Under the pieces are notes generated by a model that saw only the letters and a list, made by a program, of their open reading frames with translations, was not told the DNA's origin and searched no databases. A stretch of DNA of 58,672 bases from Actinomycetota bacterium. Lineage in GTDB: Bacteria > Actinomycetota > Aquicultoria > SKW223. The DNA is taken from the NCBI GenBank assembly GCA_026417515.1, contig JAOADC010000022.1, positions 1-58,672 on the forward strand. The letters are read 5' to 3'. This document shows, piece after piece, positions 9,519 through 33,012 of this stretch. The position numbers and the translations under genes were made by a program. The stretch's first letter is position 1. Each line of letters starts with the position of its first letter.

Positions 9519-11657
9519 ATGGCAGGTAAGAAAATTAAATCAAAGAAAAACAACAAAAAGAAAACTTCTGAAATAAATGTTTACCGGGATATCGTAGCTC
9601 TGTCTTTAACTGCTTTTTCTATCTTTATTTTGCTTGCTCTGCTAAAACCAGAGGCTGCAGGTATCGCTGGCAAAATAGTTTCTTCTGGACTGCGATATCT
9701 TTTTGGAATTGGCTCTTACTTCCTTCCTGCAATTTTCTTCTTTTATGCGCTATCAATTTTGATTTCAAGCAATACTGGATTGCGCCTGCTTACTTACGGA
9801 CTTTCAATTTCCTTTGTTTCCTTTCTTGCTTTGATATCTCTTATAAAAATTAACGGAGAATTTTTCAAAATAGAAAAGGCAAGAGAAGCTGGAGGAATCA
9901 CAGGATCTCTTCTTGCTTATCCACTTGTTACACTCTTCGGAGAAAACGGAGCCTACCTGATCATCTTCACTTCATTCATCGTTAGCATCGTCATTATTCT
10001 CAATAAACCTGTTTCTGAACTTATTGAAGGACTAAGGAAAACATCTGAAACTAGCAGAGAACCAACAAAAACGCAGAAAGCACCATTGCTTGATTCCTTT
10101 TCAAGAAAAAGAGATAGAACCATTAAGATAGAAAGACCAGAAGTCACACAACCAATAGAATTCGTTCAGGAATCAGATAATGAGATTCACGAGAGCGAAG
10201 AACAGGTATCAGAGAAAATTGAAAGAACTGGAAAGACTTCTTCTGGATACGAATTTCCTCCGCTTTCACTCCTGAACAAAAAATCAGGTCAACTCGCAGA
10301 AACAGTTGGTGACTTCAAGCGTGTTATCGAAACGACACTCGAAGAATTTAACATTCCAGCCAGAGTTGTTGGTACGCAGGAAGGTCCAACAGTAACAACA
10401 TTTGAAGTTCAATTGGAACCTGGTACTCCTGTAAGAAAATTAACCTCTCTTCAAGACGATATCTCCATAGCATTGGCAACTCCAAATGTTCGAATAATCA
10501 CTCCTTTACCCGGGAAATCTGCAATAGGTATTGAGGTTCCAAATAAATTAAGAGAGCTCGTGACACTAAGGGAACTACTAGACACTGACGAGTGGAAATC
10601 TTCAAAAGATCCACTTCTTATTGCTGTTGGCAAGAGTTCTTCAGGTATTCCATACTATTATAGCCTTCGAAAAATGCCACATATGCTGATTGCCGGTGCA
10701 ACCGGTTCAGGCAAGTCAGTTTGCCTCAACAGCATCATACTTACGATACTTTTTAAAGCACATCCTGATGATGTTAAGTTGCTTCTTATTGACCCTAAGA
10801 GAGTCGAGTTCTCTCCATATAAAGATATACCTCATCTTCTTGCTCCTGTAGTTGTCGATCCAAATAAGGCTGCTTCAGCGCTCGCATATATGGTTCAAGA
10901 GATGGAAAGGCGTTATCAGGCACTATCATCGATGGTTGCAAGAGACATCGAATCTTACAATCGCAAAGCGGCAAAAGAAGGTGCTGAAAAACTCCCCTAT
11001 ATCATCGTCATAATAGATGAACTTGCTGACCTGATGCTTGTCTGCTCAAGAGAGGTTGAAGAATCCATTGTAAGGCTTGCTCAGATGGCTCGTGCTGTGG
11101 GGATTCATCTTATTGTTGCCACCCAAAGACCATCAGCAGATATCATCACAGGTCTAATAAAATCAAATATCACCACTCGAATAGCCTTCTCGGTCAGGTC
11201 ACAGATTGATTCAAGAGTAATTCTTGATGCTGTTGGTGCTGAAAAACTTATTGGTCAAGGTGATATGTTATTCCTTGCTCAATCGCTCCTTCATCCAGTG
11301 CGGCTTCAGGCACCCTATGTTTCAGAGGAAGAAATAGAGAAGGTAACCAATTTCGTGAAATCGCAAGCAAAGCCAGATTATAAGGAAGAGGTCTTTAGCG
11401 TAAAATTAGATAAAGCGAAAGATTCTGAAGTCGACGACGAACTTTACGATGAAGCAGTTGAAACCATATTAACATACGGACAGGCATCAACTTCTTTCCT
11501 TCAAAGAAAGTTAAAAATTGGATATGCAAGAGCTGCAAGAATAATGGATATGCTTGAAGCGAGTGGAATTGTAGGAAGTCAGGAAGGTTCAAAACCAAGA
11601 GAAATTCTCATTACAAGAGAAGAGTGGGAAGCAAGAAAGAGAAGGGCTCAGGAATGA
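9519..11657 (+). CDS. ftsK: DNA translocase FtsK/SpoIIIE
   Basis: It has N-terminal TM helices, Walker A GATGSGKS, Walker B IIVIIDELAD and a C-terminal winged-helix gamma domain (SFLQRKLKIGYARAARIMD). Confidence 0.95.
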   Translation: MAGKKIKSKKNNKKKTSEINVYRDIVALSLTAFSIFILLALLKPEAAGIAGKIVSSGLRYLFGIGSYFLPAIFFFYALSILISSNTGLRLLTYGLSISFVSFLALISLIKINGEFFKIEKAREAGGITGSLLAYPLVTLFGENGAYLIIFTSFIVSIVIILNKPVSELIEGLRKTSETSREPTKTQKAPLLDSFSRKRDRTIKIERPEVTQPIEFVQESDNEIHESEEQVSEKIERTGKTSSGYEFPPLSLLNKKSGQLAETVGDFKRVIETTLEEFNIPARVVGTQEGPTVTTFEVQLEPGTPVRKLTSLQDDISIALATPNVRIITPLPGKSAIGIEVPNKLRELVTLRELLDTDEWKSSKDPLLIAVGKSSSGIPYYYSLRKMPHMLIAGATGSGKSVCLNSIILTILFKAHPDDVKLLLIDPKRVEFSPYKDIPHLLAPVVVDPNKAASALAYMVQEMERRYQALSSMVARDIESYNRKAAKEGAEKLPYIIVIIDELADLMLVCSREVEESIVRLAQMARAVGIHLIVATQRPSADIITGLIKSNITTRIAFSVRSQIDSRVILDAVGAEKLIGQGDMLFLAQSLLHPVRLQAPYVSEEEIEKVTNFVKSQAKPDYKEEVFSVKLDKAKDSEVDDELYDEAVETILTYGQASTSFLQRKLKIGYARAARIMDMLEASGIVGSQEGSKPREILITREEWEARKRRAQE

Positions 11658-19784: not shown

Positions 19785-20312
19785 GTGATTAAAATGTCCA
19801 ACAATAGTTTTGCAAAAATTGAAAAGGCTCTTCTTTCTCTTGAGAATCTTTCTCAGAAAGAAATCGAAAACTCACTTGAATTCCTTTATGAGGAAGAAAA
19901 AAGGTTATCCAAAAAGAGACGCGAACTACACTTAAAGATAGATGAAACCAGAAAAGAAATCCTTTTAAGGCTAAAGAATCAGAAGAGGAAGGTAAGAAAA
20001 GAGGTTCTTGAAAACCTTGTAAAATCCCTTCTCAATCCAATCTTGAATTTACCAAAAGAACTATTGGTAGAAGACGAAAGAAATCCTGACCTGACAGTTG
20101 ATGTTAAATCCCTCAATTTTGAAGAAATTGAAAACTACTATAACCAACTTAGGGAAGAGGAGGCTCTGGTAAGTTTTAAGAGAAGGCTTGTCCAGGGAAA
20201 AATTGATCTGTTAAAAAACTGGCTTAGCCTAAAACAGACTATGCAAGAAGGAGCAAGTGACGAAGAGTTTGCTCGTACGTTAACAAAGTTACTCTCTGAA
20301 AAAGGCTTTTAA
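19785..20312 (+). CDS. Coiled-coil protein with two RsiG-type E-x3-S-x2-R-x3-Q-x3-D motifs (candidate c-di-GMP-binding protein)
   Basis: The composition is helical and K/E/L-rich. Residues 38-53 read EKRLSKKRRELHLKID and residues 126-141 read EALVSFKRRLVQGKID, forming an internal repeat. The start is GTG 19785 or ATG 19794. Confidence 0.6.
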   Translation: MIKMSNNSFAKIEKALLSLENLSQKEIENSLEFLYEEEKRLSKKRRELHLKIDETRKEILLRLKNQKRKVRKEVLENLVKSLLNPILNLPKELLVEDERNPDLTVDVKSLNFEEIENYYNQLREEEALVSFKRRLVQGKIDLLKNWLSLKQTMQEGASDEEFARTLTKLLSEKGF

Positions 20313-24706: not shown

Positions 24707-25780
24707 CTAACGCTTGGGAAATATTATTTCGACCTCTATCTTGGCAACTCCGCTGAATCCCAATGCTTCAGCGCAAGCACGCGAAAGATCAAATTCTCTA
24801 CCTGGTATAAATGGACCTCTATCAGTGACTTTGGCAACTATTGCTCTATCTCCTCTGCGAATAAGTACAAAAGTCCCGAATGGAAGAGACCTGTGGGCCA
24901 CTGTAAAGTCCCATTGATTGAATATCTCTCCACTTGCTGTTCGTCTTCCGTGGAATTCGTTTCCGTACCAACTGGCATAACAACTCCAACTCTTTCCTGA
25001 AGATTCGTATTCTTCTGGCATCCTTTCGCTCGTAAGAAATGCTTCATCGTAAGGACTTACTCTGACAAACTTCTTTGGAACCAACTCGTCAGGACGGTAT
25101 CCTCCGCCCCTTACTATATAACCTCTAGAAGCATACTTTCTGATACCTTTTGGAGACAGCATTATGCTGTATTCACGCTTTGCGCGTTTCAATGTATCTT
25201 GTAAAGATTCTTTAAGCGATTTAAGTTGGAGTTTTTTCTGTTCGTAAACAGCCAGGTATGATTCGGTTTTTTTCTTACTGTCGTTCAAAACAAGTAGCAA
25301 CTCATTTTCTTTCCTTCTTAAATTTTTTAATTCATCAATGTTCTTTGCTTCTGCTTTAGAAATAAAAGTCAGGAATTTAATACGGTTTATAAAATCCCAG
25401 AAACCTTCGCTGTCAAGTAAAATGATGATTCCATATTGTCTATCCTGTAAATAAAGTTGTTTAATCCTTTTTCTTAGAATATCTTCTCTTTGCTTAATTT
25501 CTTCCTGAACTTTCTTCAATTTTTCTTGCGATACATTAATTTCTTTCTTTAACCCTTCAAGCCTTCCACTCAAAGAAACCATTTCTTCTTCGATTGATGT
25601 AATCTGCTTATCTACGTCCGATATCTGCTGCTGAAGTTTTTCTATCTCTTGCTTTTTTTGAATAGGGTCTGTTGCAAAAGAAGGATGGGTTACTGTTAAA
25701 GTTAAACCTAATATTAAAGTTGAAAGCAGAAAAACTTTTAACCTTTTGTTTAGCATCACTTTTAAGTAATCGTCAAACAT
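24707..25780 (-). CDS. RlpA-like lytic transglycosylase family protein with N-terminal coiled coil
   Basis: A signal peptide and long coiled coil are followed by a C-terminal DPBB domain (ASWYGNEFHGRRTASGEIF...VTDRGPF). Confidence 0.8.
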   Translation of the reverse strand: MFDDYLKVMLNKRLKVFLLSTLILGLTLTVTHPSFATDPIQKKQEIEKLQQQISDVDKQITSIEEEMVSLSGRLEGLKKEINVSQEKLKKVQEEIKQREDILRKRIKQLYLQDRQYGIIILLDSEGFWDFINRIKFLTFISKAEAKNIDELKNLRRKENELLLVLNDSKKKTESYLAVYEQKKLQLKSLKESLQDTLKRAKREYSIMLSPKGIRKYASRGYIVRGGGYRPDELVPKKFVRVSPYDEAFLTSERMPEEYESSGKSWSCYASWYGNEFHGRRTASGEIFNQWDFTVAHRSLPFGTFVLIRRGDRAIVAKVTDRGPFIPGREFDLSRACAEALGFSGVAKIEVEIIFPKR

Positions 25781-25818
25781 ACTTCGAACTTTAGAAAAAA
25801 CAGTGATTGGACTGTGTT

Positions 25819-25840
25819 TTTGCTGCGGTTATTTGCTGCG
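25819..25840. repeat. Direct repeat TTTGCTGCG x2 with 13-bp period
   Basis: Read directly from the sequence: TTTGCTGCG-GTTA-TTTGCTGCG, in the divergent intergenic region between the RlpA-like gene and the cassette. Confidence 0.6.
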
Positions 25841-25855
25841 ATAATTTTAGATATA

Positions 25856-25885
25856 TTACCACATATTTAAACTATCGGTTAAAAT
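25856..25885 (+). promoter_or_regulatory. Putative promoter giving a leaderless mRNA for the three-gene cassette (TTACCA-18-TAAAAT)
   Basis: The -10-like hexamer ends 6 nt before ATG 25892, and there is no SD sequence. Confidence 0.35.
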
Positions 25886-25891
25886 TTTTTC

Positions 25892-26203
25892 ATGCGAAAA
25901 GTATTTGGAAGTGCTTCAGACTTTTTTGAAGTTAAGCTTTATTATATTCAGGAAATAATACCTCAGGAATTTGATTGGGATGAACTCACAGCCTACATAG
26001 GACCAAGGACTCCTTTAGAACCAACAAGCAAAGCAAAATATGAAATTCAGTTCATAAGCAAGGAATCTGGTAAAGTCATAAAGAGGATAGAGTTTGAAAA
26101 TTCATCAGAAGCAAAACTAAAGTATCAGGAAGCAATTGACGATTTAAAAAATAGCGAGGTAATGGAGTTTACAAGTAAGTACGATCTGGTGCTGGAGGAT
26201 TAG
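25892..26203 (+). CDS. Hypothetical 103-aa protein (first gene of three-gene cassette)
   Basis: The ORF has no Shine-Dalgarno sequence, but a -10-like TAAAAT ends 6 nt before the ATG, suggesting a leaderless mRNA. Its stop overlaps the next start (TAGTG). Confidence 0.5.
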   Translation: MRKVFGSASDFFEVKLYYIQEIIPQEFDWDELTAYIGPRTPLEPTSKAKYEIQFISKESGKVIKRIEFENSSEAKLKYQEAIDDLKNSEVMEFTSKYDLVLED

Positions 26204-26649
26204 TGGGAATCTATTTTAATTATGATTACGAAGAAGGAAAGGAAGTTGAAAACTGGGTTCCTTGCTACTTGTGTGGAGAAAAGAAGGTTCTCTATGTCGA
26301 ATACCATATCAAGAAAGGACCTATCTATACGCTTCTTAACGATGAGGCTCGAAAATTATGGTCTGGGAGAGAGATAAAGATCGTCAGTGATACTTATTTA
26401 ATATGCGATGACTGCTATCAACAAAGACCTTCAGAAGATCTCATAATCTCAGAAATACTTAAGAAGAAGCGTCTATCCTCTCAACCACAAAAAGCAGAAA
26501 TCGATACAATAAAGGTTATAGAGAATGAAATCGAAGATGTTAAAGGCAAGATTACAGTACTTATGGAAAGGCTAGGGGAACTATACGAAAGGCTCGGTAG
26601 AGAAAAGGTCTTAAAGCAGAAAAAAATGCTTCAGAACAAGGAGGAATAG
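26203..26649 (+). CDS. Hypothetical zinc-ribbon (CxxC...CxxC) plus C-terminal coiled-coil protein, paralog A
   Basis: It has N-terminal MGIYFNYDY, four Cys in two CxxC pairs and a heptad-rich tail. It is a paralog of the next ORF. Confidence 0.65.
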   Translation: MGIYFNYDYEEGKEVENWVPCYLCGEKKVLYVEYHIKKGPIYTLLNDEARKLWSGREIKIVSDTYLICDDCYQQRPSEDLIISEILKKKRLSSQPQKAEIDTIKVIENEIEDVKGKITVLMERLGELYERLGREKVLKQKKMLQNKEE

Positions 26650-26651
26650 AG

Positions 26652-27089
26652 ATGGGTATTTACTTCAACTTTGATTTCAAGAACGGCAAAGAAGTGGAAC
26701 AGCCAGAAAGGTGCTATATATGCGGTAGACCGGATGTTTTATATGCTGAATACTACGTTCTTGATGGAGATGTATACCGTTTATATAAGAATGCTAGAAA
26801 AATTGTAAGAGGCAAGGAAATTCCTGTGGGCTCAAGAATTCATGCCATCTGCGAAGCCTGCCTTGAGAAATATCCTATGGAAGAGGATCTTGTTGAGGAA
26901 ATTCTTAAGAAACGCCACGAGGAAAAGAAAGCTGAAATTTATAAGGAAATACAGAATCTAACAAACGAAGCTGAAAACAAAAAACAGGAAATCGCGCTTA
27001 AAGAAAAAGAACTGGAAGTATTAAAGTCAGAGCTCGAAGAAATTTTAAACAGGATAGATAACCTAAAAAAGAACCTGGGTGAAAGTTAG
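26652..27089 (+). CDS. Hypothetical zinc-ribbon (CxxC...CxxC) plus C-terminal coiled-coil protein, paralog B
   Basis: It has N-terminal MGIYFNFDF and the same Cys spacing and EILKK linker as paralog A. A strong terminator follows. Confidence 0.65.
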   Translation: MGIYFNFDFKNGKEVEQPERCYICGRPDVLYAEYYVLDGDVYRLYKNARKIVRGKEIPVGSRIHAICEACLEKYPMEEDLVEEILKKRHEEKKAEIYKEIQNLTNEAENKKQEIALKEKELEVLKSELEEILNRIDNLKKNLGES

Positions 27090-27096
27090 ATAAGAG

Positions 27097-27126
27097 AAGG
27101 GCCAAAAACGGCCCTTTTCTTTTTTG
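27097..27126 (+). terminator. Rho-independent terminator of the three-gene cassette
   Basis: It reads AAGGGCC-AAAAAC-GGCCCTT followed by TTCTTTTTT. Confidence 0.8.
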
Positions 27127-27139
27127 GAAAGGAAATGCA

Positions 27140-27167
27140 ACGCAACATAATATATATTATCAGAACT
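27140..27167. other. dif-like (Xer recombination) candidate site
   Basis: The minus-strand reading is AGTTCTGATAA-TATATA-TTATGTTGCGT. The core GATAAT-N-TA-N-ATTATGT resembles recalled Firmicute/Actinobacterial dif sites. It lies exactly at the gene-orientation switch. Confidence 0.4.
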
Positions 27168-27825: not shown

Positions 27826-28545
27826 TTAGAATGCTTCGTTTGGTTTCCAGACCTCCCAGACTCTACCAACGAGATCTGGACCTGGTTTAAGTGTTTTCTT
27901 TCCTGGCACCCAACCAGAAGGTGTAGCTTCTGCTCCTCCTGTGTTTCTTACATGCTGGAAGGCTTGTATCTGTCTCATTGTTTCAGACACATTTCTTCCT
28001 ACTGGTGGAGTAAGAATTTCAATTGCCTGCACAACTCCGTCAGGATCAATTATGAAGCGGCCTCTAACGTCAACTCCCAGTTCTTCGTCATATACTCCAT
28101 ACATTTTTCCGACAGTTCCAGCTGCATCTGAAAGCATAGGGAAAGGAATTCCGCCCTCTACCATCTTTGACAGTTCGTGTTCATTCCAGATTTTGTGAAC
28201 ATAAATGCTATCAACACTCATAGATAGGATTTCGACACCCAATTTTTGGAACTCTTCGTACTTCGACGCTACCGCCGAAAGTTCAGTTGCTCAGACGAAT
28301 GTAAAATCACCGGGATAGAAGCAAAGCAGTACCCACTTTCCGAGATAATCAGAAAGTTTTACTTGAACAAACTTGCCCTTATAATATGCCGGTGCAACAA
28401 AATCTGGCGCCTTTCTGCCTACCTGTACCATCCTCCTGACCTCCTTAATTGTTGTTTCTTCAATATTTGTTTGTTTAGAAATGTTATCTTCCCCTTCTCC
28501 ATGGGCACCTACAGGTCTTGAGCATCCAACCTTCAGTTCTTCCAT
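27826..28545 (-). CDS. Peroxiredoxin with in-frame UGA (predicted selenocysteine) at the peroxidatic position (PrxU-like)
   Basis: Two track ORFs (28291-28545 and 27826-28242) are in the same frame and are joined through TGA at 28291-28293: ...[17 protein letters not shown].... The canonical-length start is ATG 28431 (201 aa); the upstream in-frame ATG 28545 also has a strong SD. Confidence 0.8.
28250..28293 (-). promoter_or_regulatory. Candidate bacterial SECIS element immediately 3' of the in-frame UGA of the peroxiredoxin
   Basis: The mRNA reads UGAGCAACUGAACUUUCGGCGGUAGCGUCGAAGUACGAAGAGUU. The upper hairpin is CUU[U]CGGCG-GUAG-CGUCGAAG, with a bulged U at +16 and G22/U23 in the apical loop. 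A 4-bp lower stem pairs AACU with AGUU. Confidence 0.6.
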
Positions 28546-32406: not shown

Positions 32407-33012
32407 GTGAGACAATTGGATGAAAACAAAAAAAACAATCTACAGAAAGTCCTTGAATTCATTAAGGATTATCTGGATAGGAACCAGAAAACACCCACTG
32501 TAAGGGAGATTGCCAGTGCTATTGGAGTATCTTCCACATCAACAGTTGTCTATTACTTAAGGAAACTTGAGAAGAAGGGCTTCATCTCAATCGAGGGAAA
32601 GAAATCGAGAAACATAAAACTAAAGGAAACTGCTTTTTTAAGAAAACAAATCCCTATATTGGGATTAATAAGAGCAGGGATACCAACTTATGCAGAAGAA
32701 AATATTGAAGGCTATCTTAATGTTGATGATTTCTTATTTCAAAAGGGAGATTTTTTGCTCAGGGTAAAAGGAGATAGCATGAAAGACGCTGGAATTTTTG
32801 ATGGGGATTTAGTCCTTGTCAAGCAAACACCTGTTATAAATCCTGGAGAAATCGGTGTGTTTATGATTGATGGGGAATCAACGATAAAGCAGTTAGGTTT
32901 AGAAAACGGACATCCTGTTTTGATACCAAAAAACAGGGACTACTCACCTATATATCCAAAGGAACTTGTTGTAATTGGTAGGGTTACAGCGGTCATTAGA
33001 GACCTTGATTAA
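32407..33012 (+). CDS. lexA: LexA repressor
   Basis: It has a winged-helix N-terminus and S24 peptidase motifs GDSMKDAG and TIKQL. The start is GTG 32407 or TTG 32416. Confidence 0.93.
   Translation: MRQLDENKKNNLQKVLEFIKDYLDRNQKTPTVREIASAIGVSSTSTVVYYLRKLEKKGFISIEGKKSRNIKLKETAFLRKQIPILGLIRAGIPTYAEENIEGYLNVDDFLFQKGDFLLRVKGDSMKDAGIFDGDLVLVKQTPVINPGEIGVFMIDGESTIKQLGLENGHPVLIPKNRDYSPIYPKELVVIGRVTAVIRDLD

Follow-up and report, generated by a model that had tools for sequence, protein, structure and literature searches.

The locus considered here raises the question of what three small consecutive open reading frames (ORFs) of an Actinomycetota bacterium encode, and whether they belong to its core chromosome or to a defence or mobile module. 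The ORFs, named ORF1 to ORF3, lie on the forward strand at positions 25892-27089 of the contig JAOADC010000022.1, exactly where an earlier reading made from the letters alone (the sequence-only reading) had placed them. The whole stretch of 58,672 nt is referred to as the window. On the comparative evidence, the cassette is judged to be a vertically inherited, lineage-specific core operon of Candidatus Aquicultoria, and not a defence or mobile module. For its products, a model is tentatively favored in which ORF2 and ORF3 would form a coiled-coil dimer with ORF1 as an accessory and serve as a scaffold or adaptor that may have a part in division or in the handling of the terminus. As a whole, this model is somewhat more apt to fail in one of its parts than to hold in all of them.

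The reality of the genes was assessed by comparison with their relatives. Against the closest relative, L019, the ratio of nonsynonymous to synonymous substitution rates (dN/dS) is 0.049 for ORF1, 0.073 for ORF2 and 0.051 for ORF3, with dS values of 0.75-0.98, and all three genes are judged to be under strong purifying selection. A word-indexed search of 5.8 billion proteins returned 13 clusters for ORF2, 22 for ORF3 and 7 for ORF1, all of conserved length and all either unnamed or labelled 'hypothetical'. When the three window proteins were searched with tblastn against 21 related loci, the other sampled lineages were found to have all three ORFs in unchanged order as far as their contigs cover the locus, with identities as low as 32 % for ORF1, 48 % for ORF2 and 52 % for ORF3. 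In additional loci beyond these 21, the gene calls give a similar size pattern. The sequence-only reading had allowed that the ORFs would be spurious if homologs and expression were lacking; the conserved order of the homologs and the low dN/dS ratios indicate real genes.

The genomes carrying the cassette are classified as Candidatus Geothermocultor quzhuomuensis, Candidatus Geothermocultoraceae, uncultured Actinomycetota or unclassified metagenome-assembled genomes (MAGs), and the first two of these groups belong to the class Candidatus Aquicultoria. An exhaustive HMMER search of 1.84 billion cluster representatives with a profile of the 90-residue head described below yielded only three real clusters. 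A fourth match, P0046, is a eukaryotic C2H2 repeat protein that matches only the H..C.EC motif and was rejected as spurious. No relatives were found in a scan of viral contigs or by tblastn against phages and plasmids. Since the profile, viral, phage and plasmid searches gave no outside relatives, the family appears to be restricted to the class Candidatus Aquicultoria, which consists of uncultured thermophilic Actinomycetota. Phyletic distribution and neighborhood had been left to be checked by the sequence-only reading, and the homologs found are confined to this one class, in a syntenic neighborhood.

The three ORFs form one translationally coupled operon. The ORF1 stop codon TAG (26201-26203) and the ORF2 start codon GTG share one G in the sequence TAGTG, and the gap between the ORF2 stop codon and the ORF3 ATG is 2 nt. 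Both ORF2 and ORF3 are preceded by a GGAGG-type ribosome-binding site, located inside the 3' ends of ORF1 and ORF2, respectively. The intrinsic terminator that closes the operon has a folding energy of -21.9 kcal/mol (z = -4.4), which was reached by none of 200 shuffled sequences. Relatives carry a hairpin-like sequence followed by a T-run at this position, as judged by eye, and its sequence is unrelated. The ORF sizes, the overlap, the gap and the terminator reported earlier were all borne out by gene boundaries and folding, and the operon anatomy agrees with the tightly coupled unit that the earlier reading had described. Upstream of ORF1, a promoter scan detected TTACCA-18-TAAAAT at 25856-25885. 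The TAAAAT hexamer and its distance to the ORF1 ATG are kept in five lineages, and the ORF1 start has no Shine-Dalgarno sequence. Because the hexamer ends so close to the ATG and a Shine-Dalgarno sequence is missing, the ORF1 mRNA is probably leaderless; leaderless transcripts are frequent in Actinomycetota. An Rfam scan of the window gave no match.

The position of the operon on the chromosome is as constant as its internal order. Both the gene strand and the GC skew flip at about 26-28 kb, where the cumulative skew is maximal, and a dif-like sequence lies just outside the operon. This site has the properties by which dif sites are recognized, as it is a 28-bp sequence unique in the window, has an 11-6-11 layout and lies at the shift point of the skew. 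It is identical to the B. subtilis dif site at 19 of 28 positions and to that of E. coli at 17 of 28 (reference sequences as given in PMC3025954); the central TATATA and the inner arms are among the matching positions. All loci that reach past ORF3 have the site in one and the same orientation, whereas the adjoining intergenic DNA is not conserved. It is taken to mark the replication terminus as a putative Xer site; neither xerC nor xerD was found among the window ORFs scanned. Since this site lies 3' of ORF3, at the switch of skew and strand, the cassette is the final operon on the leading strand of one replichore ahead of dif. In relatives, it is located at most about 1.6 kb upstream of the dif-like site. 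The left flank of dif is invariant, and the right flank varies among relatives, with the Macro and AhpC genes present or absent. The GC content of the cassette is 0.366, compared to a window mean of 0.390 (standard deviation 0.020), and because it is near this mean, the composition is regarded as native. The Pfam domains, the skew and the unique 28-mer are all consistent with the earlier placement of the cassette between an RlpA-like gene and a dif-like switch point. The accompanying suggestion that accessory genes tend to gather at this location was not upheld: the cassette is fixed, syntenic, native in composition, vertically inherited and without marks of a mobile element.

On its 5' side, the operon is divergent from a gene for a putative secreted peptidoglycan hydrolase that combines a PcsB-type coiled coil (CC_PcsB, E-value 3.4e-08) with an RlpA-like DPBB domain (DPBB_1, E-value 5.2e-19). 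This arrangement is found in every locus whose contig reaches that far. As a side observation, the combination of PcsB and DPBB suggests a wall hydrolase controlled by FtsEX. The most upstream ATG of this gene is probably not the true start, as Met9 opens a segment resembling a signal peptide and the orthologs are 351-353 amino acids (aa) long. The promoter region shared by both genes contains three direct repeats, and at least two such repeats with a spacing of 11-13 nt are present in L019, L020, L004 and L001, though the flanks vary. The repeats are a candidate operator and may be recognized by a direct-repeat-binding regulator of the response-regulator type. A reading of TTCGAAC at 25786 as an SOS box was dropped, since this motif lacks a second half-site and is not conserved.

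ORF2 and ORF3 are paralogs with 43 % identity over 120 residues (BLASTP E-value 2e-29) and 46 % over the first 90 residues. They share the motifs MGIYF and GKEVE, a CxxC at 21/24 and a second CxxC at 67/70 in ORF3 and 68/71 in ORF2, so that 42-43 residues separate the Cys pairs. Invariant in both paralog clades are G2, Y4, F5, G12, K13, E14, E16, C21, C24, E33, Y34, G39, Y42, G54, E56, C70, E77 and I84. The tails carry conserved hydrophobic residues at the 3-4 spacing of heptad a/d positions, in identical alignment columns of ORF2 and ORF3. BLASTP, motifs and heptad columns thus agree with the earlier view that both paralogs consist of a head with two Cys pairs and a coiled-coil tail. Regarding the Cys pairs themselves, both are present as described, but only three of the four Cys residues (C21, C24 and C70) are invariant across the 36 aligned sequences. 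The ORF2 and ORF3 sequences form two reciprocally monophyletic clades, which points to a single duplication that predates the sampled radiation, with both copies kept in all sampled lineages. No further paralogs of ORF2 or ORF3 were found within the window.

An AlphaFold2 (AF2) model of ORF3, built on the 36-sequence alignment, reached a predicted local distance difference test score (pLDDT) of 92.3. The modelled head (residues 12-66) consists of five strands (12-19, 29-38, 41-53, 55-59 and 62-66) and is followed by a short helix (68-73) and a single continuous helix (77-141) with a pLDDT of 95-98. This long helix has a/d periodicity over at least four heptads, as expected for a coiled coil. 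The turn that joins strands 1 and 2 contains C21 and C24, and C67 and C70 are placed at the junction of strand 5 and the short helix. This placement corresponds to a predicted zinc knuckle and a half-site at a helix N-terminus, in a treble-clef-like manner. Residues 1-10 are the most conserved stretch, and yet their pLDDT is only 69. Because this stretch is highly conserved but only moderately ordered, the model suggests that the invariant N-terminal MG[IV]YF peptide is a docking strand. In the nearer clade of ORF2, a variable Pro-containing linker precedes a heptad helix with a conserved LGELYERLGRE motif. The ORF3 head is near neutral (pI 7.6) with an acidic tail, and the ORF2 head is acidic (pI 5.0).

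ORF1 is a different protein, for which hhalign found no relation to the ORF2/ORF3 head. It is acidic (pI 4.7) and contains neither Cys nor His, and in its model, with a pLDDT of 78, two helices come after three strands. All three proteins are hydrophilic, with grand average of hydropathy (GRAVY) values of -0.55 to -0.77 and an acidic pI, and no membrane or signal segment is evident by eye.

None of the three proteins could be assigned to a described family. In scans against Pfam, NCBIfam, PADLOC and PHROGs, ORF1-3 matched nothing beyond coiled-coil or CxxC noise, and a Pfam scan of the 36 isolated heads returned nothing above threshold. Matches of the heads to curated zinc-ribbon or zinc-finger families were all sub-threshold, namely DZR_2 with 16 bits (cut-off 27), DUF2039 in 17 of the 36 heads (best E-value 0.007), zf-RING_5 and Zn_ribbon_TFIIS. 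The PDB was searched with the ORF2 sequence and with profiles of the head and of ORF1, and no meaningful match was obtained. The best Foldseek E-values were 0.43 for ORF3 against the PDB, 0.11 for ORF3 against BFVD and 0.22 for ORF1 against the PDB, none of which is significant. The absence of a significant match in all of these resources is in line with the sequence-only reading, which had recognized no family.

From these properties, the favored scaffold or adaptor model can be set out as a series of steps. The Cys pairs of each head are predicted to bind one structural zinc ion, and the stalks of ORF2 and ORF3 would pair in parallel and in register to give a two-headed heterodimer. A heterodimer is the most economical arrangement because both copies are always retained and co-translated. 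The acidic ORF1 would be a third, stoichiometric subunit, and the N-terminal MG[IV]YF peptide would serve as the docking strand. The resulting complex would be a cytoplasmic scaffold or adaptor and not an enzyme. A metal-binding hetero-oligomer with a role in division or the envelope had already been suggested by the sequence-only reading and is likewise putative. The weakest step is the possible role in cell division or in the handling of the chromosome terminus. It was considered because the operon is always divergent from the PcsB-like hydrolase gene, shares a repeat-bearing region with it and always lies beside dif. In a more specific version, the two-headed zinc-binding dimer and its acidic partner could form a class-specific terminus-handling complex at or near dif. 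Such a complex could be an accessory to dimer resolution by Xer and FtsK, or a link between terminus and divisome that is a non-homologous counterpart of MatP/ZapB. This version is a long shot.

The conservation pattern of one branch is relevant here. The Geothermocultor-like branch (L007-L013, L015-L018 and L022), which contains Candidatus Geothermocultor, carries two reverse-strand genes between ORF3 and dif, one with a weak GGDEF match and one encoding an uncharacterized protein of 208 aa. Between ORF2 and ORF3, this branch has a gene with a metallo-beta-lactamase (MBL) fold (Lactamase_B_3, E-values 1e-16 to 5e-23), which overlaps the ORF2 stop codon in L007 and L008. Its HxHxDH motif is degenerate (TLPQREY, SIGEDH or HNDPDH), and the protein may be a non-catalytic subunit. 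The window contains no copy of this gene. In most loci of the branch, a small Cys-containing ORF of 62-106 aa lies 5' of ORF1; it is missing in the lineage of L011, L012 and L013, has no Pfam match and is absent from the branch of the window.

Several observations weigh against the favored model, particularly against its positional part. The whole 20-kb neighborhood is syntenic, so the nearness to the hydrolase gene and to dif may be frozen gene order, and the link to division or the terminus that is derived from position is therefore weak. Since genes have been accommodated between ORF3 and dif and between ORF2 and ORF3 in the Geothermocultor-like branch, strict adjacency is not required. Only the nearer lineages show the upstream repeats clearly, and the repeats are degenerate in L024 and L026. 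Concerning the metal site, Gly takes the place of C67 in 6 of the 23 aligned sequences of the ORF3 clade, all from one sub-clade, in which the conserved His64 might stand in for it. The charges at heptad positions e and g do not separate the heterodimer from homodimers: the g-e' counts are near neutral, with 3-4 attractive against 2-3 repulsive for ORF2/ORF3, 2-4 against 4-6 for an ORF3 homodimer and 2-4 against 2 for an ORF2 homodimer. Finally, no public RNA run contains the locus, which was found in one hot-springs metagenome DNA run.

The serious alternative to a scaffold is that ORF2 and ORF3 are nucleic-acid-binding regulators, whose dimeric metal-binding heads would read the direct repeats that precede ORF1 or some other site on DNA or RNA. 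They would then control the operon and the divergent hydrolase gene, with ORF1 as a modulator. Zinc-knuckle heads on a dimerizing stalk are a common layout of DNA-binding proteins, and the conserved triple direct repeats in the shared promoter region, the near-neutral ORF3 head on its acidic tail and the weak, sub-threshold matches to TFIIS, RING and ribosomal zinc fingers would fit this role. However, neither a helix-turn-helix nor a known DNA-binding family was found with Pfam and NCBIfam, the ORF2 head is acidic, and direct repeats at 11-13 nt suit response-regulator sites better than a two-headed parallel dimer. Overall, regulation by ORF2 and ORF3 is considered unlikely, but less so than any of the following readings.

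A rubredoxin-like redox or metal-handling function, serving adjacent genes of an oxygen-sensitive or oxidative-stress kind, namely those for the anaerobic ribonucleotide reductase NrdDG, the thioredoxin-like protein and the peroxiredoxin, has little probability. The two CxxC pairs resemble rubredoxin knuckles, and NrdD, NrdG, the thioredoxin-like gene and AhpC all lie within 6 kb of the cassette. Yet these genes are convergent with it and are located on the other replichore, beyond dif, and whether a locus has AhpC and Macro does not depend on the cassette. In addition, one Cys has been lost in an ORF3 sub-clade, rubredoxins have no 65-residue coiled coil, and Foldseek gave no match to rubredoxin-like folds.

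The sequence-only reading had also considered a small defence module. In this form, or as a toxin-antitoxin module in a terminus-proximal accessory island, the idea is suggested by three small coupled genes of no assigned function beside dif and by a PADLOC match of ORF3 to LmuB (E-value 5e-05). That match covers only a coiled-coil segment, with 64 of 1007 profile positions; no full-length match to PADLOC-DB was obtained, as the matches to LmuB, Cas10 and AbiLii are all confined to this segment. A defence module is also at odds with the same syntenic site in every sampled lineage, a divergence comparable to that of a core gene, the dN/dS ratios, the native GC content and the lack of phage, plasmid or viral relatives. 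The uniform distribution and the absence of PADLOC matches beyond coiled-coil noise make this suggestion very improbable.

It is hardly credible that the cassette is the remnant of an integrative mobile element exploiting Xer (IMEX) that was inserted at dif. This reading draws on the distance of only 50 nt to the dif-like site, but a second flanking dif is missing: the best candidate between 24.5 and 27.1 kb matches at 16 of 28 positions, a value reached 52 times in the window by chance. Furthermore, genes for an integrase, for replication or of phage type were not found, viral and plasmid collections gave no relatives, and the cassette is ancient and vertically inherited. The last alternative, spurious ORFs in a non-coding region, is suggested by the lack of annotated homologs and of expression data and has practically no probability, as codon-level conservation at a dS of about 0.75-1 already speaks decisively against it, along with the 13, 22 and 7 homolog clusters of conserved length, the confident AF2 model and the conserved ribosome-binding sites and start codons.

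The remaining gene content identifies the window as core chromosome. To the left, the forward strand encodes PNPase, RNase J, FtsK, the glycine cleavage system, an RsiG-like protein, an FHA protein, a MerR regulator of the Rv1828 type, a phosphoribosyltransferase (PRTase) and a TrkA-type potassium channel. To the right, the reverse strand encodes Macro, peroxiredoxin, dUTPase, NrdG, NrdD, HflX, DapF, MiaA, MiaB, RNase Y, RecA, Der and AroA. Two of these genes deserve mention in their own right. The RsiG-like gene (Pfam RsiG, E-value 6e-17), a member of a coiled-coil anti-sigma factor family, is located upstream of a conserved pair of FHA and Rv1828-type MerR genes. The AhpC/peroxiredoxin gene was called as two ORFs, which are one continuous frame with an in-frame TGA (28291-28293) exactly at the position of the peroxidatic Cys, making it a candidate selenocysteine peroxiredoxin. 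The AhpC ortholog of L020 has Ser (TCA) at this position, and the AhpC calls are split in L001, L004 and L019 as well. A small hairpin about 9 nt after the TGA has an energy no better than that of shuffled sequences (z = 0.28) and no Rfam match. The coordinates of all features are listed in the table.

Table. Features of the operon, its surroundings and related loci; positions refer to the window unless a locus is named
Feature	Position	Strand	Description
FtsK	9519-11657	+	15 kb upstream of the dif-like site
RsiG-like protein	19785-20312	+	
Putative peptidoglycan hydrolase	24707-25780	-	Secreted; PcsB-type coiled coil and DPBB (RlpA-like) by Pfam
Direct repeats	25809-25840	+	Three [A/G]CTG[C/T]G repeats, spacing about 13 nt, in the 111-nt divergent promoter region (25781-25891)
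-10-like TAAAAT	25880-25885	+	Ends 6 nt 5' of the ORF1 ATG
ORF1	25892-26203	+	ATG start, 103 aa, orphan protein
ORF2	26203-26649	+	GTG start, 148 aa
ORF3	26652-27089	+	ATG start, 145 aa, ORF2 paralog
Intrinsic terminator	27097-27126	+	Hairpin 27097-27116 and U-run, closes the operon
dif-like site	27140-27167 (wider 27137-27167)	+	ACGCAACATAA-TATATA-TTATCAGAACT, 28-mer, 50 nt past ORF3, outside the operon
AhpC/peroxiredoxin	27826-28545	-	
LexA	32407-33012	+	Among reverse-strand genes right of the cassette
MBL-fold gene	L008 5280-5978; L011 5265-5969; L015 7261-7983; L022 1196-1909		Between the ORF2 and ORF3 orthologs
Extra small ORF	L008 4354-4542; L015 6156-6476; L022 159-350		Immediately 5' of the ORF1 ortholog and overlapping it; Cys-containing in L015

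If the favored reading is true, the operon encodes a previously undescribed protein family, with a confidently predicted head for which searches of the PDB and BFVD gave no significant match. It would be a core operon fixed in an entire uncultured class, always beside the chromosome dimer-resolution site, and would add a lineage-specific component to what little is known of cell biology in thermophilic, deep-branching Actinomycetota. In practice, the three proteins of 103-148 residues are a small target set for structural genomics, and the conserved dif-like site can serve as a terminus marker in Aquicultoria MAGs. Otherwise, the result is modest, as conserved hypothetical operons are common and the function is only inferred. 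The combination of a confident head model without a structural match and a strict terminus association across the class makes the operon worth following.

Among known systems, the E. coli proteins MatP and ZapB are small coiled-coil proteins that act at the replication terminus and the division site. The operon is likewise terminus-proximal, beside dif, but the comparison is one of function only, with no similarity in sequence or fold, and the location of a gene near dif is no evidence that its product acts there. RbpA, an RNA-polymerase-binding protein restricted to Actinomycetota, has a small beta core able to bind zinc via Cys/His and a helical tail. ORF2 and ORF3 differ in that their tail is a 65-residue heptad coiled coil and their genes are duplicated and in an operon with ORF1; there is no match to Pfam RbpA or, with Foldseek, to RbpA structures in the PDB. 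Proteins of the DksA/TraR family (PF01258) have about 150 residues and an antiparallel coiled-coil hairpin N-terminal to a C4 finger with the pattern CxxC-N17-CxxC, whereas in ORF2 and ORF3 a CxxC-N42-CxxC head is followed by one long C-terminal helix. No match to PF01258 was found with the full proteins (E-values up to 1) or with the isolated heads (E-values up to 5), nor any with NCBIfam or Foldseek.

The eukaryotic XRCC4/SAS-6 scaffolds, which also combine a small beta-rich head with one long dimerizing helix, were the only recurring look-alikes in Foldseek. With E-values of 2-4 and template modelling (TM) scores of 0.18-0.35, these matches are not significant, and since the scaffolds bind no metal, they provide an analogy only. 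Proteins of COG1579/PF02591 (zf-RING_7), such as HP0958 of Helicobacter pylori, are small cytoplasmic proteins composed of a coiled coil and a four-Cys zinc ribbon, and they act as adaptors or chaperones and not as enzymes. In these proteins, the coiled-coil hairpin comes first and the ribbon last; ORF2 and ORF3 have the reverse order, a five-strand head with about 42 residues between the Cys pairs and no Pfam match to this family at any of the thresholds examined. Set beside these systems, ORF2 and ORF3 are a new, narrowly distributed family of generic architecture, with a putative metal-binding head on a coiled coil.

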